The notes: generated from the letters alone by a model not told the origin. A stretch of 64,000 nucleotides of DNA from Candidatus Ribeiella danica (GCA_016717335.1 JADKFS010000012.1:29421-93420), one strand, 5' to 3'. Positions 33,040-46,301 are shown, counted from the first letter of the stretch. Numbers and translations: made by a program.

Positions 33040-33460
33040 ATGTGCCTGGCTCGATCGCCGGCACGGATGCCTGCGATGCAGCACACCAGTATATACGTAA
33101 ACGCTCCGCTTTGGTTGCTGGGTACTGTGCTACTGTGCTGTTCGGGGGCTGCGCGCCCCTGCCCCCGCGCGAGTACACGTGTGTTCGGGGGGCTGCGCGC
33201 CCCCCGCGACCCCGCGGGTGGGGGTGGGCCGCCACCCCCGCCGCCCCCCGGCCGGGGCTTCGCCCCTGGACCCCAAAATGACGCTACCTCATCTTCAGCA
33301 CTTGGTGCGCATGCCCAGCTGAATCCAGGCGCGGCGAGAGACAACACGTCCGATCGGAATGGTGCCAGGCATGGGCCACCAGCAATGCAACCGGGAAGGC
33401 ATCATTTGCCAGAGGGGGGCCGGGGCGCAGCGCCCCGGAAAAGCCTCGCGCGCAGCGCGC
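33040..33460. repeat. Composite repeat cluster: GGGGCTGCGCGCCCC hairpins, family C fragment (GGGGCTTCGCCCCTGGACCCCAAAA), CGGAATGGTG..GGCATGGGCCAC..ATTGCAAC..CATCATTTGCCAGAGGGGGGCC module
   Basis: Read directly; modules shared with 24540-25100 (same orientation) and 47413-47560 (reverse orientation). Confidence 0.8.
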
Positions 33461-33463
33461 CAG

Positions 33464-35980
33464 CTAGCGCGTCAGCGCCACCTTCACCACCACCTCGCCG
33501 CGCAGGGTGATGTGGGCCGTCTGGGCAACCTGGTGGCCGTCGCTGGTCGCGCGGGCCTCGCTGGCGCTGAACACTAGGTCCTGCGCGGCGTGGCCCTTGC
33601 GGGCGAGGCGCTGCTCTGGCTGGGCGGCGATACGCAGCGGCGCGGCCGCGGCGCCCGGCAGCACGCGCTTGAGCACCGCCCGCGCGCGCGCGACTAGCGC
33701 GCCCGGCACGCGCGCCTCCTCCAGCGTTACCAGCGGCCGGTGCGCCGGCGCGCCTTCCGCGCCCGCCAGCTTCGGGGCGGCCCAGCCGGAGGCGGCGGCC
33801 AGCGGCGCCACGCCGGCCCACGGGTCGCCCAGCAGCACGAACTCGCCCAGGGTCTTGACGTCGACGTCGTCCAGGAAGCCCTGGCGGTGATAGATCGTCT
33901 GCGCGAACTCCAGCCGGGCCTGCTGCAGCGCATGGCCGACCGGCAGGCCGCGCGCCAGGTGCGCGAGCAGCCGCTGGCAGAGCAGGTCGGCGCAGACCAG
34001 CGGCGCGGCGTAGCTGCCGTAGGCGCTGGCCGTCGCGCCGACGCAGGCCAGCGCGCCCTCGGCCAGCGCGCGCAGGGGGATCGAGGTCGCGGTCGTGCGG
34101 CCGGGCAGCTCCATCCCGTAGCAGGCCTCGCTCACCAGGATGCCGCCGGCGACCACGCCGCCGATCTGGTCGGGGCGCAGCGCCACCGGCAGGCGCGACG
34201 CCGCGCCCGACCCGATCCCCTCGCCCTGGCCGTACCAGTTCGGCAGGCCGGCGCCGCCGTGCAGGTTGACGTACAGCAGCCGGCGCGCCGCCAGCGCGCG
34301 TGGGTCGAGCGCGTCGGCGTCGAGCGGCGGCGAGGCGTGCAGCGCGGCGTCGCGCTCGATCGCGTCGAGCACGGCGCGCGAGCTTTCCTGCCAGACGCGG
34401 GCGGTGTAGCCGCCGCTCAGGGCCGCCTGCGCGTGCGGCGGCCAGCGCACGCCCAGCAGCCCGCGGCCGGCAGGGATCTGAGCGACGGGCCGCGGCATCC
34501 GGCCGTGATGGTAGTCGATCATCTGATCGAGCGTGGCCAGCAGCAGCGCGGGGCTGGGGCCGGCGCCGTCCGGCAGCCGCGCGACGATGCGCTGTGGCGC
34601 CAGGTAGCCGGCGTCGTCGCTGGCGTACGGGCTATCGGACAGCACGACGCCGTCGTCGTCGTGGGCCGGGTTCGGCAGGCGGTGAAACGGGATGCACTCG
34701 TCGCCGCCGATCAGCAGCAGCACCGCCAGCTCGCGTCGCTCCTGCGCCAAGGCCGCCGACATCGCGCGCACCAGCTCGCCGATCGCCGCAGCGTCGCGCG
34801 GCACCGGCGCGAGCGAGACGCCGCCGCCGACCCGCAGCGAGGCCGCGTCGTCGAGATAGCAGCAGTGCGTCTGAAGGCCGCGCCGCCCCAGCGCGGCCGC
34901 GAGCGCGCGCAGGCGCCGATCGATCGCCGCGAAGGCTGCCTCGCCGTAGCGCTCGATCAGCGCGAACCGGCAGCCCAGCAGCACCTGGGCCTGCGGGCAA
35001 GCGGCGGCCGGGTTTGCCAGCGGCCCCGGCGCGCCTGTGACGCTGGCGACTCGCAGTCGCACGCGCTCGGTCGTGGCGATCAGGCTGCTGACATCCGGGT
35101 CGGGCTGGGGCGGTGCGGGCGGCAGGTTCGCTTTGGCGCCGGCGGCAGATTTGCGGGCCGGGCCGAGGCGGAGCGGCAGCAGCGTCAGAAACGGTCGGAT
35201 CGAGTCGAGTGCGGCTGCCCATGCCAATGCTGGCGGCGGGGCAGGCTCCCAGGGTGGCGGCTCGGGCGCGGCCAGCAGGCGCGCCTGCTGCCCGTCGGGG
35301 TCGTAGCCGGCACAGCGGGCGCGCGCGACGGCGCCGTCGCCGGGCCAGGCGCCAAGGGCCAGCTGTAGCAGTGTCGCCGGCAGGCTGGCGCGCTCCAGGT
35401 CCACGAGCAGCGCGAGCTGGCTGCGCGCCGCGCCCAGGTTATCGCAGCGCCGCAGCGCCTCGACGTAGTACAGACGCAGGTCCGCCCGCCGCGGCTCGCG
35501 CGCGAGGGCCGCCGCAAGCTCGGCGACCGCCAGGTCGGCCAGGCCGCGCCGCAGGTAGAGCACGCCCAGCCCGAGCGGCTGGGGCGAGTCGCCCAATCCA
35601 GGCGCCGTGTCGCCGAGCGGGTCGTGCAGCGCCGCCCGCCGCAGCGCAGCCTGCGACTCCTGAAGCCGCCCGCACCGCGCGAGCGCGGCGGCCAGGCCGG
35701 CCCACGCGGCGGCGCTGAGCGGGTTCAGCTTCAGCGCGCGGTGAAAGTGCGCGGCGGCCTCCTGGTGCCGACCCAGGTCGAGCAGCGCCTGGCCGAGCAG
35801 GGCCAGCGGCGAGATCGCCTCGGGCCAGCGCTCGCGCACGGCAATAGCCGCCTGCCGGGCCGCCTGAGGCTCGCCCAGGCGCAGCGCCAGCTCGATCGCG
35901 CGGCAGACCTGCTCCAGATCGAGCGGCTGGTCTTCAGAAGCCGTTGCAGCGCCAGGGTGGGCTAACAGCCGATCGCTCAT
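33464..35980 (-). CDS. TPR-repeat protein with C-terminal caspase-like (CHAT-type) peptidase domain
   Basis: True start MSDRLLAHPG at 35980 (ATGA overlap with stop of upstream NACHT gene; the track's 1033-aa version is a frame-overlap extension). N-terminal TPR-like helices; C-terminal LYVNLHGGAG...(46 aa)...GILVSEACYG gives His-Gly / Ser-x-Ala-Cys dyad spacing typical of caspase-fold CHAT/C14 peptidases. Confidence 0.7.
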   Translation of the reverse strand: MSDRLLAHPGAATASEDQPLDLEQVCRAIELALRLGEPQAARQAAIAVRERWPEAISPLALLGQALLDLGRHQEAAAHFHRALKLNPLSAAAWAGLAAALARCGRLQESQAALRRAALHDPLGDTAPGLGDSPQPLGLGVLYLRRGLADLAVAELAAALAREPRRADLRLYYVEALRRCDNLGAARSQLALLVDLERASLPATLLQLALGAWPGDGAVARARCAGYDPDGQQARLLAAPEPPPWEPAPPPALAWAAALDSIRPFLTLLPLRLGPARKSAAGAKANLPPAPPQPDPDVSSLIATTERVRLRVASVTGAPGPLANPAAACPQAQVLLGCRFALIERYGEAAFAAIDRRLRALAAALGRRGLQTHCCYLDDAASLRVGGGVSLAPVPRDAAAIGELVRAMSAALAQERRELAVLLLIGGDECIPFHRLPNPAHDDDGVVLSDSPYASDDAGYLAPQRIVARLPDGAGPSPALLLATLDQMIDYHHGRMPRPVAQIPAGRGLLGVRWPPHAQAALSGGYTARVWQESSRAVLDAIERDAALHASPPLDADALDPRALAARRLLYVNLHGGAGLPNWYGQGEGIGSGAASRLPVALRPDQIGGVVAGGILVSEACYGMELPGRTTATSIPLRALAEGALACVGATASAYGSYAAPLVCADLLCQRLLAHLARGLPVGHALQQARLEFAQTIYHRQGFLDDVDVKTLGEFVLLGDPWAGVAPLAAASGWAAPKLAGAEGAPAHRPLVTLEEARVPGALVARARAVLKRVLPGAAAAPLRIAAQPEQRLARKGHAAQDLVFSASEARATSDGHQVAQTAHITLRGEVVVKVALTR

Positions 35981-38900
35981 GCCAGCACTTCCTGATCGGC
36001 GCCGCGCAGATGATGCGCGACAAAGGCGAGCGGGCCAAGCGTGCTCAGCTCGACGATCGCCTCGCTGTAGCCGGGCGACAGGCGCACGGCGCGCCGGTAG
36101 CGCTCGATCGCGCGGCTGTACTGCTTGAGGCGCCGGTGCGCCTTGCCGGCCAGGAAGTGGTAGCGCGCCTGCTCGGGCTGTAGCTCGGCCGCGCGCTCGA
36201 ATGCCGCCAGCGCCTCGCGATTCAGGCCGACGTCGAGCGCTGTCTCGCCGTAGCGTATTTGCACCTCCGGGTCGTCCGGCGCCAGCCTGACCGCGCGCTC
36301 CATTACGCGGTGGGCCGCGTCGAAGTGGCGCGCGTGGGCAAGCGCCTCGGCGTACGCCATCTGGTAGTCCACCTCGTCCGGCGCCAGCTCGGCCGCGCGC
36401 TGGATGTGGCGCAGCACCGCCTCGACGTCCGCTTCCCGCGCCAGGATCTGGGCCATGCCGGCGTGCGCCGCGGCGGCCCTGGGGTCGAGCGTCAGGGCAC
36501 GCTCGAACGAGCCGCGCGCCTCCGCCAGCTCGCCAAGCGCAAGGCAGGCGCGGCCGAGCCGCCACCAGTGCTCGGCAATGCCCGAGTCGGGCGCGACCGC
36601 CCTACGGTAGTGCCAGGCCGCCTGGTCGTGGCGCTGCCCCTGCTCGAGCAGCGCGCCGGCAGCGGCGTGGAGCTGCGCGTCGTCGCCAAAGCGATCGAGC
36701 GCGCGCTCCAGGGTTTCGAGCGCGATCTCGCAGCTCGAATGGCGCCGCTGCGCGTGCGCGAGCGTGCGCCAGTGCTCGGCGACGCCGGGGGCGAGCTGGA
36801 CGGCGGCTGCGAAGTGGTCGAGTCCGCCGCGCTGATCGCCCAGCTGCCCGGCGAGCTGGCCGAGCTGGTAGTGCCACTCGCCGCGGTCGGGGGCGAGCTG
36901 CAGCGCCTGCTCCAGCGCCGCGCGCGCCTCGGTCGCCAGCCCCTGCCCGGCGAGCAGGCGCGCGTACGCGTAGAGATAGTCGACGTTCGTGGGGTCGAAC
37001 TGCGCCGCGCGCGCGTGTGCGCTGCGCGCGGCATCGCTTATCCCCAGCCGCAGGCAGATCTCGCCCATCTGCGCGTGCCAGGCCGCCACGCCCGGCTGGA
37101 GCGTCGTCGCGTTGATCAGCGCGGCGCGGGCCTCGTTGAGACGCCCGCCGTGGGCGTACAGAGTCGCCAGGCGCTGGTGATAGGCAGCGACGCTCGGGTC
37201 GAGCCGGACAGCCCGGACGGCCGCGGCCAGCGCGCGCTCGTGCCGCCCGAGCGACGTATAGGCGGCGCTGAGCGCCGCGAGCGTGGGGGCGTGGTCGGGC
37301 CGCAGCTCGGTCGCGCGCTCGACCGCCACGACTGCCTCGGGCGACCGATCGAGCGCGCCGAGCACGCGCCCGAGGAGCAGCTGCATGCGCGGGTTGTCGG
37401 GCTCCGCGCCGGCCGCGGCCACAAGCGCCGCGTGCGCGGCCGACAGGTCGCCCAGCTCATACGCGATCCGGCCGAGCAGGTACGCGTCGGCGGCAGCCTC
37501 CGCGCCCTGCTCGCGTGCCGAATCGAGATCGGCGCGCGCCTCGGCCGGCCGGCCGAGCAGGTATAGCGACAGCGCCCGCCGACGCAGGATGTCGGCCGGC
37601 GCGACGTGCTCCTGCTGGGCGACGCCGCGGATCGCTTGCCGCGGCGTGAGGCCAACCTCCCCGGCGCTTGGGGCCGCCAGGCACCGATCGAACGACTCGA
37701 CCGCCGCGGCGTGCCGGCAGAGCAGCTGGTCGGCCAGGCCAAGCTCGTAGCGCCAGCGCAGGGAGCCAGGCTCCAGCGCGACCGCGCGCTCGAACGCGGC
37801 GCGGGCCCGATCGAGCGCCGGGCGAGTCGATTCCGCTGCGACGTGCAGCTCGTCCGGCTCGTCCACAAGCGGCACATTATGTCGATACGCTCGCCCCAGG
37901 GCGCCGTGATACGCGGCGACATCGGGCGCCGCCGCCGTGGCCGCCGTCAGCGCCGCGACTGCGGCTTCGACGGCGCCGCGCTCGAGCGACGCACTGCCGA
38001 GCAGGAAGGCCGCGCGCGCGTTGGCGGGATCGAGCTCGTGCGCGCGCCGCAGCGCCTGCAGCGACTCGTCCGGCGCGCCCTGGGCGAGCAGCGCCTCGCC
38101 GAGAATGCGCCAGTGGTCGCTCTGGTGCGGCTGGAGCGCGACCGCCCGGCGCGCGCTCTCGACCGCAGACTCGCGCGCAGGCGACTCAAACGGTTCGCTA
38201 GGCACGGCCTCCGGCCACTCCAGCAGGAGCTCGGCGAGCCGCGCATGGGCCGGCGCCAGCTGCGGCGCGCGAGCGATCGCCTGCTGGAGCTGCGCCAGCG
38301 CCCCGGCGCGCTCGCCAAGCTGCGCGAGCAGGCAGCCGTAGCGATAGCGCAGCGTCGCGTCTTCGGGCATCGCCGCCACGGCGCGCGGCCAGGCGCTCCG
38401 GGCATCCTCATGCCGATCGAGCGCCTCATAGTCGTCGGCCAGCTCGGCCCACCAGCCGTCCGGGCCGCCCTCGGCCAGCGCGCGCGCAAGCTGACCGGCC
38501 GACTCGGCGCGCCGGTCGAGTCCGCACAGCGCGATCGCCAGCAAGTAGCGGTGCTTCGCCGTCGGCTGCAGATCGACCGCCCGCTCGGCGGCGGCCAGCG
38601 CGTCCTTGTATACCCCGCCAGAGGCCAGCAGCTGCGACAGCAGCGCGAAGCTGGCAGCGTCGTCCGGGCCGCGCCGCAGCGCCTCGGCTAGATCGTCGCG
38701 CGCGGCTTCGATCTGCCGCAGCTCAAGGTGCAGCCCGGCGCGCAGCCGCCAGAGCTGGTGGTGCCCGGGGCTCGCGGCGATGGTGTGGTTCAGCTCGGCC
38801 AGCGCCTCGGCGTGCCAGCCGCGCTCGATCTGGATCTGCGCCAGCTCGGCGCGCCACAGCGCGGCATCCGGCCGGAGGCGCAGCGCGTGCTCGATCGCCT

Positions 38901-41900
38901 CCGCGGCGCCCGCATGCTCGCCCAGCGCGTGCAGGCAGCGCCCGAGCGCGGAGTGATGCTCGGCATTGCCGGCGTCCAGCAGAGCGGCGCGGCGCAGGCA
39001 GGCGAGCGCCGCCGCGTGGCCGCCCGCGTCCACGTGGGCCTGCCCGAGCGCGTAGTGCCACTCGGCCCGCGCGGGCTCGCGCTCGGCCGCGGCGCCGAGG
39101 TGTAGGATCGCGCCGGCGTGGTCGCCCGCGCCGGACAAGGCGCGCGCCAGCGTCACACGGTGCGCGGCGACCTGGGGCGCGAGCGCGACCGCTCGCTCCG
39201 CACAGGCGCGCGCCTGCCCCCAGTCCTGCGACTGGGCGTAGATCCGGCTGAGCTGCGCGTGGGCCTCGGCCAGGCTCGGGTCGATCTGCAGCGCCCGCTG
39301 GAGCGGCTCGGCCGCCGCGCCGGGATCGCCCGCGCCAAGCAGCAGCTCGGCCAGGCGCAGGTGGTGCCGGGCGCAGTCAGGGGCCAGCGCCAGCGCCTCG
39401 CGCGCCGCCCGCAGCGCGTCGGCGGGCTGGCCGGCCCGGTCGAGCAGGTCGCGCAGCGCGGCAAAGGCCGCGTCGGTCGGTGCCAGCGCGGCGGCCCGCG
39501 CGAGCAGCGGCAGCGCCTGGTCGTCGCTGCCGAGCTGGACCAGCGCCTGGCCGGCGATCAGCGCCGCGTCGGCCAGGTCCGGGGCGAGCTGAAGCGCAGC
39601 CTGCGCGCTCGACAGCGCCGATGGCGGCTGCTCCAGCTCCAGCAGCACGCGCCCGCGGCCAAGGTGCGCGCCGACCAGAGTCGAATCGCGTGCCAGCGCC
39701 CGGTCGAACAGCTCCAGCGCCTCGTGCGGGCGGCCAAGCCGCAGCGCCAGCTCGCCGGCGTGCTGCTGGTGTGCGGGCAGCGCCGCCGCGAGCCGGGCGG
39801 ACTGGCGCGCAGCCTGGTAGGCTGCCTCGATCTGGCCGCAGGCGCCGAGCGCCTCGCTGTAGTGGAACAGCGTCTGGGGGTCGTCGGGCTGGATCTGCAG
39901 CGCCTGCGCGAACGCCGCGAGCGCCTCGTCCAGCCGCCCGGCCAGGGCGAGCGCGCGACCGAGAGCTTCGTAGGCGGGCGCCGTCCGCTCGAGTCGCAGC
40001 GACCGGCCGAGCGCCCGGATCGCGCGGCCCCAGGACGCGTCGGCGACATGGGCCAGGCCGGCCTGGTAGAGCGCCGCCGCGTTCCGGCGGTCGCTGCGCA
40101 GCGCGCGCGCCAGGTGCCTGCGGGCCTGGGCGCGATCGCCGAGCCGGAGCCGCATGGCGCCGGCCGCGCGCGCGAACTCGGCGCGCCCCGGGGCGAGCGC
40201 GGCTGCACGCTCGTACGCGGCGAGCGCCGGCTCGATCTGCCCGGCGGCCTCGGCGACCGTCCCGGCGTCGTAGTGCAGCTCGGCGCGCGCGGGCGCAAGC
40301 GTGGCGGCGCGCCGGAGGTGCCGGGCCGCCGGGCGCAGCTGGCCCAGCTCGCGATGGGTCCGGCCGAGCGCGCGCTCATAGTCGGCGCTGTGCGGGTCGA
40401 GCGCCAGCGCGCGCCGGTAGGACTCGAGCGCCGGCTCGTGCTGCCCCTGGCGCCACAGCAGCTCCGCTATGTCAGCGTGCGCGGCAGCGCTGTCGGGGCG
40501 CAGGCCAAGCGCGGCCCTCAGCACGAGCTGCGCCTCCTCGTCGTCGCCGCGGTCGCGCAGCAGCGCCCCAAGGCGGTGCTGGTAGGCGTCATTCAGGGGA
40601 TCGAGGCGCACGGCGTGGCGATACGCTGCCAGCGCGCCGGATTGCTCGCCGCACAGCTCGCAGGCCTCGCCAAGCTCGAACGACAGCGCGGCGCTGCCGG
40701 TGTCCAGCTCGGCGGCGCGCTGCAGAGCCGCCCGCGCGCCGGAGCAATCGCCCAGGGCGCGCCGCAGCCGGCCAACCTCGCGGTAGAGCTCGGGCCGCGC
40801 CGGCTCGATCGCCGCAGCCTTCAGGTAGCAGGCGATCGCCTCGGCCAGCCGCCCGGCGCCGCCGTAGAGCCGGCCAAGCTCGGCGTGCGCCGCCGCGTCG
40901 TCGCCATGCTCGTCCAGCAGCGCGTGGAGGAGCGCCTCGGCCTCGTCTGCCTGCCCGCTCAGGCGCAGCGCGCTCGCCACGCTGCGCTGGTATGCCGGAT
41001 CGTCCGGCCGTCCCGCCAGCGCCTGCCGATACGCCGACAGCGCGCGCTCGGCCTGACCCTGCCGCAGGTAGACCTGGCCGAGCTCGTAGGCGGCCTCGGA
41101 CAGGCGGTGCTGCTGCGCCTGCACGACCGCCTCTAGCGCGACCGCGGCCTGGTCCATCTCACCCAGCCGGCTGCAGACCACGCCCAGCTCCTGGCGGTAG
41201 CGCAGGTCGCCGGCCTCGCGGGCGAGCGCCTGCTCGTAGGCCGCGCGCGCGTGGCGCCACTGCCCGGCCGCGCCATACAGCTCGCCCAGACGCCCGAACA
41301 GGCCAGCCTCATCGTAGCCATCGAGCGCGGCCCGCTCGAGCTGTTCGAGCGCGGCGGCGGACAAGCCCTCGGCGGCAAAGGCGTCAGCCAGCATCACGCG
41401 CAGCGGCGGGGTCAGGGCGCCAATCCGCGCCAGCAGCGGCTCGAACTGGCCCGGCGCCTCGGCGTCGATCAGGCAGCGCGCCGCAAGCGACACCGCGCCG
41501 TTGGCGAGCAGCCGGCGCAGCACCGACTCGCGATCGCCGCACAGGCTATACGCCAGCACGACCGCGTCGCCCGAGGCGCGCGCGAAGCTGCCGGCCGGCC
41601 AGGTCTCGGGGCTCGCGCGGGCGAGCAGGAGCGCCTGGCCAAACGCGCGCAGCGCCGGGCGTCGAAACGAGACCTGCTGCCGCTCGGGGTCGAGCGCCAG
41701 GATGCCCGCGCCCACCAGCAGCTGCAGCAGCCCCGGCGCCATATCCGGCGTGGGCGAGTCCCGCGCGCCGATCGCCGCCAGCGCCTCGGCTATGCTCAGC
41801 GAGCCGCGCCGGTCGCGGTCGAGCGCCGCCGCAAGCTCAGGCAGCGCCGCGAGCGCCGCCTCCGCCGTCGCCGGCGACCGGTGCGCCTCCAGCGCCGCGG

Positions 41901-42741
41901 CGATCACGGCGGGCAGCCATGCGGCCAGCAGCCGGCCGCGGCTCAGCGGCCCGGTCGGCCCCAGCTCATGGGCGATCCCGCCTGGCAGCGCGGCCAGCCA
42001 GCGCGGGCAGGCGGCCAGCTCGGCCAGGTCTTCCGCGCGCTGCAGCCAGCCGGCCAGCTCGTCGCCGTGCCGTCGCTGGATCAGGCCGAGCGCGTCGCGC
42101 GGCTGCAGCGCGCGGATCTCGCGCACCTCGGCCGCGCCGAGCCAGGGGCGGAACAGCGCCAGGCGCTCGCTCCGGCAGGTGCAGATCCAGCGCGCCTGAG
42201 GGCCGAGCGCCGCCAGCGTGTGCGACAGCGCCGACAGGCTGATCAGCTGCATGTCCGGCGCGACCTCGTCTAGCCCGTCGAGCAGCACCAGCAGCGGACG
42301 CTGCTGGGCCAGCTCCTGCAGCGAGGGGGCCTCCGGTCCAAATCCAGCGGCGAAGGTTGCCTCGACGCTGTGCTGGAAGCATGCCAGCTCGATGTACAGC
42401 GGCAGCGGCAGGGGGCTTTTGGCCCTGCCCGAGGTCGCGCTGGCGGGCTCGCCCGCATCCTCCGCGAGGATCGCCTCGGCCAGCCCGCAGGCGAGCTGCC
42501 GCAGCAGCGTGGTCTTGCCGGCACCGGCCGGGCCGGCCAGCATGAGCCGCGGCCAGATCTCGGCGGCCATCTGGATCGTCACGCGCGCGGCCCTGGGCGG
42601 CCAAAGCGCCTGCTCGCCCGCGGGCTCCCGCTCGCCGGCGCGGGCCAGCCACAGCGGCACGACCTCGCGCGACCCGCTGAAGCGCGGGTCGGCGCGCAGC
42701 GCCTGCAGGTAGAGCTGAATCCAGGCTTTGGTTCTACTCAT
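35977..42741 (-). CDS. Giant STAND NTPase: N-terminal NACHT-type P-loop domain followed by ~1700 aa of TPR repeats
   Basis: Start MSRTKAWIQLYLQ at 42741 (AT-richer upstream region); Walker A LMLAGPAGAGKTTLLRQL, Walker B LLVLLDGLDEV, then dozens of 34-aa TPR units (A..Y..AL.L.P..A.....LG...). 2254 aa. Confidence 0.8.
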   Translation of the reverse strand: MSRTKAWIQLYLQALRADPRFSGSREVVPLWLARAGEREPAGEQALWPPRAARVTIQMAAEIWPRLMLAGPAGAGKTTLLRQLACGLAEAILAEDAGEPASATSGRAKSPLPLPLYIELACFQHSVEATFAAGFGPEAPSLQELAQQRPLLVLLDGLDEVAPDMQLISLSALSHTLAALGPQARWICTCRSERLALFRPWLGAAEVREIRALQPRDALGLIQRRHGDELAGWLQRAEDLAELAACPRWLAALPGGIAHELGPTGPLSRGRLLAAWLPAVIAAALEAHRSPATAEAALAALPELAAALDRDRRGSLSIAEALAAIGARDSPTPDMAPGLLQLLVGAGILALDPERQQVSFRRPALRAFGQALLLARASPETWPAGSFARASGDAVVLAYSLCGDRESVLRRLLANGAVSLAARCLIDAEAPGQFEPLLARIGALTPPLRVMLADAFAAEGLSAAALEQLERAALDGYDEAGLFGRLGELYGAAGQWRHARAAYEQALAREAGDLRYRQELGVVCSRLGEMDQAAVALEAVVQAQQHRLSEAAYELGQVYLRQGQAERALSAYRQALAGRPDDPAYQRSVASALRLSGQADEAEALLHALLDEHGDDAAAHAELGRLYGGAGRLAEAIACYLKAAAIEPARPELYREVGRLRRALGDCSGARAALQRAAELDTGSAALSFELGEACELCGEQSGALAAYRHAVRLDPLNDAYQHRLGALLRDRGDDEEAQLVLRAALGLRPDSAAAHADIAELLWRQGQHEPALESYRRALALDPHSADYERALGRTHRELGQLRPAARHLRRAATLAPARAELHYDAGTVAEAAGQIEPALAAYERAAALAPGRAEFARAAGAMRLRLGDRAQARRHLARALRSDRRNAAALYQAGLAHVADASWGRAIRALGRSLRLERTAPAYEALGRALALAGRLDEALAAFAQALQIQPDDPQTLFHYSEALGACGQIEAAYQAARQSARLAAALPAHQQHAGELALRLGRPHEALELFDRALARDSTLVGAHLGRGRVLLELEQPPSALSSAQAALQLAPDLADAALIAGQALVQLGSDDQALPLLARAAALAPTDAAFAALRDLLDRAGQPADALRAAREALALAPDCARHHLRLAELLLGAGDPGAAAEPLQRALQIDPSLAEAHAQLSRIYAQSQDWGQARACAERAVALAPQVAAHRVTLARALSGAGDHAGAILHLGAAAEREPARAEWHYALGQAHVDAGGHAAALACLRRAALLDAGNAEHHSALGRCLHALGEHAGAAEAIEHALRLRPDAALWRAELAQIQIERGWHAEALAELNHTIAASPGHHQLWRLRAGLHLELRQIEAARDDLAEALRRGPDDAASFALLSQLLASGGVYKDALAAAERAVDLQPTAKHRYLLAIALCGLDRRAESAGQLARALAEGGPDGWWAELADDYEALDRHEDARSAWPRAVAAMPEDATLRYRYGCLLAQLGERAGALAQLQQAIARAPQLAPAHARLAELLLEWPEAVPSEPFESPARESAVESARRAVALQPHQSDHWRILGEALLAQGAPDESLQALRRAHELDPANARAAFLLGSASLERGAVEAAVAALTAATAAAPDVAAYHGALGRAYRHNVPLVDEPDELHVAAESTRPALDRARAAFERAVALEPGSLRWRYELGLADQLLCRHAAAVESFDRCLAAPSAGEVGLTPRQAIRGVAQQEHVAPADILRRRALSLYLLGRPAEARADLDSAREQGAEAAADAYLLGRIAYELGDLSAAHAALVAAAGAEPDNPRMQLLLGRVLGALDRSPEAVVAVERATELRPDHAPTLAALSAAYTSLGRHERALAAAVRAVRLDPSVAAYHQRLATLYAHGGRLNEARAALINATTLQPGVAAWHAQMGEICLRLGISDAARSAHARAAQFDPTNVDYLYAYARLLAGQGLATEARAALEQALQLAPDRGEWHYQLGQLAGQLGDQRGGLDHFAAAVQLAPGVAEHWRTLAHAQRRHSSCEIALETLERALDRFGDDAQLHAAAGALLEQGQRHDQAAWHYRRAVAPDSGIAEHWWRLGRACLALGELAEARGSFERALTLDPRAAAAHAGMAQILAREADVEAVLRHIQRAAELAPDEVDYQMAYAEALAHARHFDAAHRVMERAVRLAPDDPEVQIRYGETALDVGLNREALAAFERAAELQPEQARYHFLAGKAHRRLKQYSRAIERYRRAVRLSPGYSEAIVELSTLGPLAFVAHHLRGADQEVLA

Positions 42742-42900: not shown

Positions 42901-43239
42901 TTACCGCACCAGCGACAGCATCCAGAAGCTGACGCCGCAGATGATCGTCCCCAGCAGGCACAGGAACGCCCCGGTGCCGATGGCGGTCTGGACGAGGCCG
43001 GTGATCGACTCGAACAGGCGCGCCGAGCTTTCGATCGCCGCCTGCACGCCGACGTCGCCGAGCAGCTTGCTGCTCAGGCGCGCGGACTGGCTGGAGAGCG
43101 AGCGCATGGCCTCCTGGTACTCGCGCGTCAGGATGATCACGATGCCGCTCACCAGCATCGCCAGGCCGGCCAGAAACAGCGCGACGGCCATGCCGATCTG
43201 TATTGTGCTGGACATATTCTCTTTCTCTATCCACCGCAT
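42901..43239 (-). CDS. Small membrane protein (3 TM), unknown function
   Basis: 112 aa; MAVALFLAGLAMLVSGIVIIL and GAFLCLLGTIICGVSFWMLSLV hydrophobic segments; normal codon bias. Confidence 0.5.
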   Translation of the reverse strand: MRWIEKENMSSTIQIGMAVALFLAGLAMLVSGIVIILTREYQEAMRSLSSQSARLSSKLLGDVGVQAAIESSARLFESITGLVQTAIGTGAFLCLLGTIICGVSFWMLSLVR

Positions 43240-43244
43240 TGCCA

Positions 43245-43480
43245 GTCGGCAGTCGGCAGTGCGGCAGTCGGCAGTGCGGCAGCAGGCAGTCGGCAGTCGG
43301 CAGCAGGCAGTCGGCAGCAGGCAGTCGGCAGCAGCAGGCAGTCGGCAGTCGGCAGGCAGTCGGCAGCAGGCAGTCGGCAGTCGGCAGCAGGCAGTCGGCA
43401 GTGCGGCGAAGGCATTCCAACGCGATTCAACATGCGCTCGTCGCGCTCTACAATCTACAATCTACAATCTGCAATCTACA
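43245..43480. repeat. Tandem arrays: (CAGTCGGCAG/CAGTGCGGCAG/CAGCAGGCAG)n ~17 units (43245-43430) then (TACAATC/TGCAATC) x5 (43441-43478)
   Basis: Read directly; 3' end of the GAF-protein CDS (..RLRVVDCRL) runs into the TACAATC array. Confidence 0.95.
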
Positions 43481-44847
43481 ACGCGCAGCCGGTCGGCGAT
43501 CAGGCCGCCGAGCAGCATCAGCAGCGTCTGGGTCGCGATGTCGGCGGGCCGCCCGAGCGCGGCCAGCACGACCGGCATATCCGCGCCCGCGCCGACCGGC
43601 AGGCAGACCAGGCTCGCGCGCCCTTCGGCGCGCACCAGCGGACGATCTCCGCGCAGCGCCTCGGCGGCCACCCGCAGCTGCGCCCCGCTCAGGTGCGGCG
43701 GGGTGGCGCCCGGCCGCCCGCGCGCGAAGACGAACGGGGCCAGGGCGTGCAGCTCGTCGGGGGCCAGCAGCGCCAGCCAGTCCAGATCGAGCACGCCTGC
43801 CAGTCTGCGGCAGGCCTCCTGGCAAGCCTCCCGGGGGTCGGGCGCGATGCGGAGCAGCCCGGCGGTCTCCCAGAGCGCGGTCAGCGCGGCCTGCTGGCGC
43901 CGCAGCTGCGCGTCGTGGCGCAGCGCCAGCGCCCGCAGCCCGACCAGCGCCGCCAGCTGCTCAAGGCCCGAGCGGCGGGCCGGGGTGAGATCGCCGGCGG
44001 GCAGCTCGATCCGGCCAAGCACGGCGCCGCAGCTGATCGGTATGCGTGCTGTGCCGGCGCAGCCATCGTGCTCAGGCAGGCTCCCCGCTCCCGCGTCGGC
44101 CAGCTCGACCACGGCGAGCGCGCCGCCAATCGCGCCGGCCTGCTCGCGCGCTAATCTCACCAGCGCGTCGATCGTCGCGCAGGCGTTGACCTGCGCGGCC
44201 AGGCGCCTCCAGTCGACGCGCCCAGCAGCCTCGCGGCCGTGATCGTGCGCCCTGGCGATCGTGCCGGCGTAGAGCGCGCGCAGCGCCAGCCGCACCTGCT
44301 CGCGAATGCGATAGACCGTGGCTCCGCCGATCAGCTGCACGGCCAGCATCGCCGCCAGCAGGCCCGGCGCCGGGCGAGAGACGGCGCAACCCGAGAGCAG
44401 GACCAGCGCGCCGACGCCGCTGCCCACCAGCGCGTCGCGCGCCGAGCCGAGCAGGGCGCCCTGGACGACGAGCAGCAGCGGCAGGCCAAGGAGCGGGCTG
44501 CCGGCGCCGCCGCTCCCCAGGATCAGCAGCCCGGCCGCCAGCCCGTCGGACAGCAGCGCGAGCGCGAGCGGCAGCCGCCAGGCCAGGCCCGCGCCGAGCG
44601 CGAGCGCCGACAGCGCGGCGGCGAGATAGAGTGCGGCCGGCCAGGTCGCCGGGGGAACATTCCAGCCCAGCGCTATCAGCGCGAGCAGCAGCAAGCAGCC
44701 GCGGACGGCGAATGATGCAGCCGTGCTCAGGCGCGCGAGGCGGCGCTGGAAGTGACTCAGGGCGGGCGCCTCGCCGTGCCGATCGCCTTGAGGCGTCACC
44801 GGCGGCCGAATGGAAGCGGCGCGAGACGGGCGGAGCGAGATGATCAT
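43462..44847 (-). CDS. Membrane-anchored GAF-domain sensor-like protein without recognisable output domain
   Basis: 461 aa; ~5 N-terminal TM helices then two GAF-like regions (by composition/inference); no kinase or cyclase motifs seen. Confidence 0.55.
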   Translation of the reverse strand: MIISLRPSRAASIRPPVTPQGDRHGEAPALSHFQRRLARLSTAASFAVRGCLLLLALIALGWNVPPATWPAALYLAAALSALALGAGLAWRLPLALALLSDGLAAGLLILGSGGAGSPLLGLPLLLVVQGALLGSARDALVGSGVGALVLLSGCAVSRPAPGLLAAMLAVQLIGGATVYRIREQVRLALRALYAGTIARAHDHGREAAGRVDWRRLAAQVNACATIDALVRLAREQAGAIGGALAVVELADAGAGSLPEHDGCAGTARIPISCGAVLGRIELPAGDLTPARRSGLEQLAALVGLRALALRHDAQLRRQQAALTALWETAGLLRIAPDPREACQEACRRLAGVLDLDWLALLAPDELHALAPFVFARGRPGATPPHLSGAQLRVAAEALRGDRPLVRAEGRASLVCLPVGAGADMPVVLAALGRPADIATQTLLMLLGGLIADRLRVVDCRL

Positions 44848-45023: not shown

Positions 45024-46301
45024 CTAGCCGGGCAGCGCGCCGAGCCGCGCGATCGACTTCCAGTCGCCAACCTCGCAGTAGGCCACGTCGAGCGCGAACG
45101 CCTCGGCGACGTAGTCGCGGCCGTCGAGCGCGACGCGGAAGCTCGGGCCGAGCGGCGCGCCGAGCGACTGCGCGAGCGCGTACCGGTGGATCTGCCAGTC
45201 GGCGCGCAGCCGGCTGCCGGCACGGCGGTACAGCTGCTCCTGCAGGGCCTCGGCCAGCGCGGACTTTGGGCCGGCGGCCGGGCGCGCGAGCAGCTCGCTG
45301 AGCCGTGCGATCTCCCTCCAGCTGCCGGCCGGGCTGAAGATCGTGTCGAGCGCGTAGCACGCGGCGACGTAGTCCTGGCCGGCCGCGCCGACCCGCCAGC
45401 CCGGGCCCAGCGGCGGCCCAAGCGGCGCGCGCTCGGCGTACTGGTGCAGCGCCCAGCCGGGGCGGTAGGTCTCGCCGGCCTGGGCGTAGACTGCCTGCGT
45501 CAGCGCCTCGCGCAGCGGCTGCTGCTCCGGCGCGGCCAGCGCGGCCTGCCGCACGACGCGCTGCCAGTCCCCGATCGGGCTCAGCAGCGTCTCGCGGCCG
45601 AACGGCTGCGCGATATAGGCGCGGCCGGCCACAGCCAGCTCGAACGACGGCCCGACCGGCAGGCCCAGCCCCTCGGCGCGCGCCAGGCGGTGCATCGCCC
45701 ACTCCGGCCGATCGGTCGCGCCGACCTGCCGGTAGGCCTCGGCGCGCAGCGCCCGCGCCAGCCCGACCGGGCCGTCGCCGGGCGAGGGCGGCCGCGGCGG
45801 GCGCTCGTCCGGCGACGCGGGCTGCTGCGGGAAGAGCTGGCGGATAAACTCGGCCCAGGGGAAGCCGGCCGGGTCGGATTTGCGGCCGGGCGGCTGCGCG
45901 ACGTCGCGGTGGCGCACGACCATGGCGGGCGCGATCTGGTAGCGGGCCACCTTGTCGCGCGCGAGCCGCAGCAGCGCGTCGACCTGCCCGGCCGGGTACG
46001 GGTCGCGGCCGTCGTTGGCGTTCTCAAGCTCGATCCCGAGCGAGATCTCGTTGATCGCCGTCTCCCCGCGCCAGCCGGCGCGGCCGGCGTGCCAGGCCGC
46101 CAACTCGTCGGGCACGAGCTGGTAGACCTGGCCCTGCTTGTCGATCAGGTAGTGCGCCGAGACGCGCGCGGCGGCGTTCGTCAGCCAGGCCAGCGCGCCG
46201 CGCAGGCTGCCCGCCGTCGCGTGGACGACCAGCATGGCTATGTCCCGGCCGCCGCGGGCGCCGTAGTTGGGTGAGCGAACGGTGGCGATCATATGGCACA
46301 C
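45024..46301 (-). CDS. N-acetylmuramoyl-L-alanine amidase (Amidase_2/PGRP domain) with three ~65-aa C-terminal repeats
   Basis: N-terminal MLVVHATAGSLRGALAWLTNAAARVSAHYLIDKQGQVYQLVPDELAAWHAG...ISLGIELEN matches Amidase_2/PGRP zinc amidase motifs; C-terminal three repeats (YRQVGATDRPEWAMHRLARAEGLGLPVGPSFELAVAGRAYIAQPF / YAQAGETYRPGWALHQYAERAPLGPPLGPGWRVGAAGQDYVAACY / YRRAGSRLRADWQIHRYALAQSLGAPLGPSFRVALDGRDYVAEAF). Confidence 0.8.
   Translation of the reverse strand: MCHMIATVRSPNYGARGGRDIAMLVVHATAGSLRGALAWLTNAAARVSAHYLIDKQGQVYQLVPDELAAWHAGRAGWRGETAINEISLGIELENANDGRDPYPAGQVDALLRLARDKVARYQIAPAMVVRHRDVAQPPGRKSDPAGFPWAEFIRQLFPQQPASPDERPPRPPSPGDGPVGLARALRAEAYRQVGATDRPEWAMHRLARAEGLGLPVGPSFELAVAGRAYIAQPFGRETLLSPIGDWQRVVRQAALAAPEQQPLREALTQAVYAQAGETYRPGWALHQYAERAPLGPPLGPGWRVGAAGQDYVAACYALDTIFSPAGSWREIARLSELLARPAAGPKSALAEALQEQLYRRAGSRLRADWQIHRYALAQSLGAPLGPSFRVALDGRDYVAEAFALDVAYCEVGDWKSIARLGALPG

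Follow-up and report, generated by a model that had tools for sequence, protein, structure and literature searches.

Overlapping genes for a NACHT-TPR giant and a C25-type protease

The window analysed here, a 64,000-nucleotide stretch from Candidatus Ribeiella danica, encodes two large adjoining proteins on the minus strand. Gene 1 (35977..42741; ATG at 42741, TGA at 35979-35977) encodes a 2254-residue NACHT-TPR giant, and gene 2 (33464..35980; ATG at 35980, stop at 33466-33464) encodes an 838-residue TPR-C25 protease. Both open reading frames exist as the initial annotation described them. In the ATGA at 35977-35980, which can be read directly from the minus strand, the two coding sequences overlap: TGA ends gene 1 and ATG opens gene 2. 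Overlaps or gaps of 4-11 nt between genes of these two types are also seen in loci L011-L013, and a called gap of 130-170 nt separates the giant and protease genes in Roseiflexus-type loci.

No N-terminal effector domain is present in gene 1, and its NACHT module begins near residue 66. The Pfam NACHT profile (PF05729) matches the protein at 38.7 bits (cut-off 26.7) over profile positions 3-165 of 167, and the nucleotide-binding domain spans residues 66-226 (42064..42546, minus strand; codon coordinates checked). Within this domain, the Walker A motif GPAGAGKTT corresponds to residues 70-78 (G70-T78), the Walker B motif LLVLLDGLDEV to residues 150-160 (with D155, D158 and E159), and the TCR sensor motif to T188-R190. 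The sequences GPAGAGKT, LLDGLDE and TCR are invariant among the Roseiflexaceae orthologs. Pfam NACHT scores of 32-57.6 bits are obtained for orthologs and distant NACHT-bearing giants, and Walker A is retained in all NACHT-bearing giants examined (18/18). Behind the nucleotide-binding domain, a helical region extends to about residue 460 and is followed by TPRs to the C-terminus, which is the layout of a STAND protein. The TPR solenoid (residues 461-2254; 35980..41361, minus strand) gives TPR-family matches throughout and autocorrelation peaks at 34 and 68 residues. Its approximately 1,800 residues of 34-residue TPRs would accommodate about 52 repeats as estimated by length, in line with the roughly 50 units proposed previously. 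The solenoid closes with a C-terminal tail (…ELSTLGPLAFVAHHLRG…) that is conserved among Roseiflexaceae giants and has a recognisable relative in those of Anaerolineae. At the sequence level, gene 1 is thereby confirmed as a STAND-class NACHT NTPase fused to a very long TPR array, and the NACHT domain and Walker motifs named in the initial annotation stand. The gene 1 protein is 52-55% identical to its orthologs (37% for the L004 lineage), and the alignments are collinear from end to end. No hypervariability is observed in the giant, and its evolutionary rate equals that of the protease. The G+C content of the 34-46 kb region is 0.72-0.77, as compared to about 0.70 elsewhere; this rise accompanies the coding of Ala-rich TPRs and does not mark an island.

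From N- to C-terminus, gene 2 is predicted to comprise a TPR domain (residues ~20-240), a linker of low conservation, a gingipain-like catalytic domain of two subdomains (~330-720) and a beta-sandwich (~750-838). The catalytic dyad region maps to 34121..34261 on the minus strand, with the His574 codon at 34259-34261 (NLHG) and the Cys620 codon at 34121-34123 (SEACYG). The 46-residue distance from the histidine of NLHGG to the cysteine of SEAC agrees with the spacing originally noted for the dyad. In alignments, both residues are invariant across 25/25 close homologs and 135/135 diverse homologs; among 146 family representatives, NLHG is found in 140 and (S/T)EAC[YF] in 136. This strict invariance argues for catalysis by the gene 2 protease. 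Pfam Peptidase_C25 (PF01364) matches gene 2 at 24.6-26.2 bits (cut-off 23) over profile positions 45-370 of 374. Distant members of the family reach up to 49.6 bits, and a precomputed PF01364 match is present on 120/120 homologs among the matches listed. The only other results of the Pfam scan were TPR-type families and BTAD, the latter below its cut-off (21.5 versus 22.1 bits).

For the fold search, an AF2 model of gene 2 residues 318-838 was used, prepared from the alignment of 135 diverse homologs. A full-length model built from only the 25 close homologs, with pLDDT values below 50 for much of residues 430-750, was left out of this search. The predicted fold is gingipain-type. Its matches include PorU and GPI transamidase, and a structural relationship to CHAT, Craspase and SAVED-CHAT proteins is recognisable. 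The protein had been described as a TPR-CHAT caspase-like protease. The placement in clan CD (caspase fold), the N-terminal TPRs and the dyad are retained from that description, but the CHAT identity (PF12770) is rejected in favour of family C25, since no CHAT match was found in Pfam and the fold is much closer to that of gingipain. These same two features distinguish the module from TPR-CHAT (Csx29) of the type III-E CRISPR Craspase and from SAVED-CHAT proteins; moreover, no Cas7-11/gRAMP, CRISPR array or cyclic-nucleotide sensor lies near it. The lack of a CRISPR context, as first reported for this pair, was borne out by a Pfam scan of the neighbours, which revealed no Cas domain, and by the tandem repeats, which include no CRISPR-like array.

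The characterised gingipains RgpB and Kgp of Porphyromonas gingivalis (C25, clan CD) are virulence proteases that are secreted and sorted through the T9SS, and they have both a prodomain and a C-terminal sorting domain. In contrast, the gene 2 protein, which is 11-15% identical to gingipains, starts with a TPR domain, shows no hydrophobic signal sequence at its N-terminus, and is encoded beside a giant TPR/NACHT protein. The secretion signal, prodomain and T9SS C-terminal domain were not found in gene 2, although these features describe gingipains proper and not the whole Pfam C25 family. PorU, a C25-like sortase of type IX secretion in Bacteroidota, is secreted and outer-membrane-associated, whereas the gene 2 protein is cytoplasmic and no T9SS is present here. 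From sequence and predicted structure, gene 2 is assigned with high confidence as a cytoplasmic cysteine protease of family C25 (clan CD) with an intact His/Cys dyad.

Upstream genes and flanking repeats

Three further genes on the minus strand precede gene 1. The nearest (42901..43215) encodes a 104-residue protein with two transmembrane segments (~8-30 and ~81-103, from the translation) around an approximately 50-residue polar helical loop. It shares 64-70% identity with its Roseiflexaceae orthologs and 33% with one Anaerolineae ortholog, and it is proposed to be a membrane anchor. A match to Pfam CdpA_N (PF23600, an archaeal division-ring anchor) scores 25.0 bits against a cut-off of 30 and is sub-threshold. 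Among orthologs, the CdpA_N similarity ranges from unmarked (L001) through weak to faint, with no match in the Anaerolineae orthologs. This similarity and one to CWB2, also sub-threshold, are treated as leads only. Identity as a holin is unsupported: there is no PHROG holin match, and the protein is conserved in Anaerolineae clusters that carry no amidase.

The second gene (43462..44847) encodes a 461-residue membrane protein with 5-6 transmembrane segments predicted by a hydropathy scan in the first 180 residues, followed by a soluble domain of approximately 280 residues. Every Chloroflexia-type locus has an ortholog (HMM E=1e-81 to 1e-188) and the Anaerolineae-type loci have none; no match was found in Pfam, PHROGs or NCBIfam. 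The 246-nt spacer between this gene and that for the small protein contains a tandem array of about 23 copies of the heptanucleotide CAGTCGG (43243..43407, Tandem Repeats Finder). Arrays of this kind with 7-8-nt units recur in other intergenic regions of the window and are not specific to the cluster.

The third gene (45024..46292) encodes a 422-residue N-acetylmuramoyl-L-alanine amidase (Pfam Amidase_2, E=2.2e-32), the translation of which consists of the catalytic domain and three C-terminal repeats of approximately 75 residues. It matches PHROG endolysin/amidase (lysis) families with E values down to 1e-21 and is AmpD-like in NCBIfam, below the cut-off of that model. Based on this AmpD likeness and on the absence of a visible signal peptide, the amidase could be a cytoplasmic recycling enzyme instead of a septal hydrolase. 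A second NACHT protein (NACHT + FGE-sulfatase) is encoded 5.5 kb from the pair.

A copy of a dispersed GC-rich palindromic intergenic repeat (33139..33451) lies outside the module and was earlier taken as its boundary. The repeat clusters at ~33.14-33.45 kb and 47.41-48.23 kb are real and inverted, with arms of up to 107 nt at 94% identity. Related copies also occur at 24.5-25.07 kb and 30.06-30.18 kb, however, so the segment is not specifically bracketed. The repeats are a dispersed intergenic family, and the idea of a mobile island bounded by them is rejected.

Distribution and linkage to ftsZ

In Roseiflexaceae, five genes occur in a conserved order: Amidase_2, the 5-6-TM protein, the ~105-residue two-TM protein, the NACHT-TPR giant and the TPR-C25 protease. 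The core found throughout Chloroflexota is a co-oriented trio that begins with the small two-TM protein, followed by the giant TPR solenoid and the protease. The amidase, which lies upstream in 8/8 Chloroflexia-type loci that cover the region, and the polytopic membrane protein are lineage-specific additions to this older trio. Word-indexed searches with the window proteins reached only Roseiflexaceae; the breadth of the family emerged with an exhaustive HMMER profile search, which gave 2,191 representatives of the family at E<=1e-3, of which 707 reach E<=1e-30. Wherever members carry a name, they belong to Chloroflexota. The loci sampled for gene order were the 80 best tblastn matches, a set that is not phylogenetically balanced. 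A giant of at least 1,500 residues lies directly upstream of the protease in 36 of the 41 metagenome loci with enough upstream DNA, and the small protein lies upstream of the giant in 33 of these 41. Linkage within the pair is tight, and the two genes are conserved together. Between Chloroflexia and Anaerolineae, the small protein and the C-terminal tail of the giant remain recognisably conserved.

The NACHT nucleotide-binding domain has been deleted in many lineages that keep the giant and the protease. The N-terminus of these P-loop-less giants aligns to residues ~200-453 of NACHT-bearing giants (hhalign 97.9%, E=3.5e-13), which indicates that only the nucleotide-binding domain is missing and that the helical arm behind it is kept. 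In Chloroflexia, including Kouleothrix, the giant retains a NACHT domain in which the Walker A, Walker B and sensor motifs are all intact. With high confidence, genes 1 and 2 encode the two large subunits of a module that Chloroflexota inherit vertically.

Outside Chloroflexia, ftsZ is the usual neighbour of the trio: in 28 of 39 distinct loci it lies downstream, in the same orientation and no more than 3 kb away. The identity of the linked genes was confirmed by Pfam Tubulin and FtsZ_C. No ftsZ is found within 3 kb in the other 11 loci; ftsZ is at 4.7 kb in two more loci, and it lies just upstream in L089 (among the 39) and in the separately sampled L013. L011 and L012 have no ftsZ within 10 kb. 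The same-strand spacing is stereotyped (0.35-1.5 kb), and the interval between the trio and ftsZ holds mraZ or a conserved 445-residue protein; mraZ occupies it in L038 and L059. The mutual identity of the linked FtsZ proteins is only 41-53%, so the arrangement has outlasted deep divergence. Giants that carry NACHT are found in the mraZ/ftsZ context as well. In the window, neither ftsZ nor any tubulin motif was found, and none of the related Roseiflexaceae loci has ftsZ within 10 kb (0/5). On long contigs, the module is flanked by housekeeping genes (e.g., rpsF-ssb-rpsR, smc and rnc), and the neighbours other than ftsZ differ between loci. Sequence searches of the PDB returned nothing significant, whether the query was the profile of the protease or of NACHT, the membrane protein or the 445-residue protein.

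This variation among the other neighbours, together with the 11/39 loci that lack a nearby ftsZ, is compatible with housekeeping proteolysis or processing unrelated to division. The module could carry out TPR-guided maturation or transpeptidation of envelope or gliding proteins, or act mainly as a structural scaffold with a minor protease role, and the adjacency of ftsZ would be inherited synteny without functional coupling. Gingipain/legumain-type clan-CD enzymes include transpeptidases such as PorU and GPI transamidase, both of which are among the structural matches of gene 2. We regard this explanation as quite unlikely, however, because the stereotyped spacing persists despite the low identity of the FtsZ proteins, an independent tie to a peptidoglycan amidase in Chloroflexia repeats the same cell-wall theme, and the invariant dyad speaks for catalysis.

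The amidase itself raises the prospect of programmed lysis or necridium-like filament fragmentation. The Roseiflexaceae protease, under NACHT control, would enable the signal-less Amidase_2 enzyme to get to peptidoglycan and cleave it, and the membrane proteins would provide access, such that a chosen cell lyses and the filament breaks for dispersal. The amidase is similar to phage endolysins, its three C-terminal repeats are of a type common in wall-binding modules, and it is co-oriented with the two membrane proteins and the NACHT/protease pair in all eight loci; Kouleothrix, moreover, is filamentous. Yet the small protein, with its polar loop of ~50 residues, is kept in amidase-free Anaerolineae clusters and has no PHROG holin match, which makes it unlikely to be a dedicated holin. 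Since the amidase and the larger membrane protein joined an older trio, and since lysis is superfluous for explaining the ftsZ linkage elsewhere, such a function is considered improbable.

Defence and division as candidate roles

One initial suggestion for the pair was a defence or inflammasome-like system. In the corresponding mechanism of abortive infection, the TPRs would sense a phage or danger ligand, NACHT would oligomerise, and the activated clan-CD protease would kill or arrest the cell. The giant does share with Avs, bNACHT, NLRs and the apoptosome a NACHT-clade P-loop NTPase (Walker A, Walker B and arginine sensor), a helical arm and long C-terminal repeats, and its partner is a caspase-fold protease with an intact dyad that is structurally akin to CHAT, Craspase and SAVED-CHAT proteins. 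The nearby NACHT + FGE-sulfatase protein also fits a defensive role, and conflict systems of the NLR/caspase kind are enriched in multicellular bacteria (PMC7159879). The giant differs from Avs, bNACHT and NLR proteins, however, in having no fused N-terminal effector. For gene 1, PADLOC returned just two matches, both at chance level (E=0.015 and 0.056), and for gene 2 it returned none; PADLOC and PHROGs returned none for the small two-TM protein or the membrane protein, and PHROGs returned none for genes 1 and 2. The sole antiphage match in NCBIfam, to antiphage_EruA, scored 16 bits against a cut-off of 1000, and viral contigs gave one match in 2.9 million. Patchy distribution in a variable or defence-island context was not observed; instead, gene order is inherited across the phylum in housekeeping or dcw/ftsZ contexts. 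In addition, the supposed sensor aligns collinearly with its orthologs and its rate of evolution is no higher than that of the protease, most lineages of the family do without the nucleotide-binding domain while keeping the giant and the protease, and the supposed island boundaries are dispersed repeats. Taken together, these results make a defence role unlikely. The other suggestion made at the outset, that the module serves development or signalling in a multicellular bacterium, comes closer to the evidence.

An inherited gene set that usually sits beside ftsZ is more likely to serve division or cell-wall remodelling than antiviral defence. Our favoured explanation, held tentatively and at slightly less than even probability, is a membrane-anchored, TPR-scaffolded protease complex that acts in division or septal wall remodelling, as suggested by its gene neighbourhood. 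The three proteins of the trio lack signal peptides, consistent with a cytoplasmic complex that is probably membrane-attached through the small protein. In this model, the small protein would anchor the TPR solenoid at the membrane, and the solenoid would bind and position, or restrain, the protease by TPR-peptide or TPR-TPR contacts. The overlapping stop and start codons would favour co-assembly of the giant and the protease. Where NACHT is present, nucleotide binding and hydrolysis may serve as a switch for oligomerisation or release, after which the protease would cleave a division or envelope protein. The most likely target process is cell division or septal peptidoglycan remodelling in filaments, given that the trio lies directly upstream of ftsZ outside Chloroflexia and is joined to an amidase in Roseiflexaceae. 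In the lineage of the window itself, the division link is indirect and runs through the amidase. To our knowledge, STAND NTPases paired with clan-CD proteases serve death or immunity wherever they have been studied (Avs, bNACHT, the apoptosome, the inflammasome and Craspase), and this counts against a role in division.

The logic of the module may resemble that of separase (C50, with securin) more than that of an inflammasome, as separase is also a helical-repeat-regulated clan-CD protease that acts once per division cycle. The helical repeats here differ in being canonical TPRs that are mostly on a separate polypeptide, no Pfam C50 match was found, and the link to division is provided by gene neighbourhood only. 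By extension, filamentous Chloroflexota may possess a lineage-specific, separase-like division machine. A membrane-anchored solenoid of ~50 TPRs, ancestrally an NLR-type NACHT ATPase, would hold the gingipain-fold protease at the septum. Once in each cycle the protease would be released or activated and would cut a factor of the divisome or the septal wall; in Roseiflexaceae, this would license the linked amidase and thereby control cell separation and filament length. This specific version is speculative and somewhat unlikely. If it is true, NLR-like STAND switches and caspase-fold proteases would also perform a housekeeping function in the bacterial cell cycle, one that could predate, or parallel, their use in immunity and death.

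Pairs of a STAND NTPase and a caspase-fold protease are textbook death or immunity devices, but the pair described here behaves as a core vertical gene set of its phylum. The literature searched contains no description of the module, and PMC7159879 does not mention gingipain, amidase or Roseiflexus. The cell biology of Chloroflexota filaments, which include the sludge-bulking genus Kouleothrix, is poorly known. A role in division or at the septum, if true, would supply missing lineage-specific components of the divisome or of cell separation in these filaments, give the gingipain fold its first cytoplasmic role, and provide a bacterial analogue of separase-type control. Even if this role proves wrong, annotation improves: at present these proteins carry no label beyond "tetratricopeptide repeat protein" or "hypothetical", whereas the protease belongs under C25, not CHAT.

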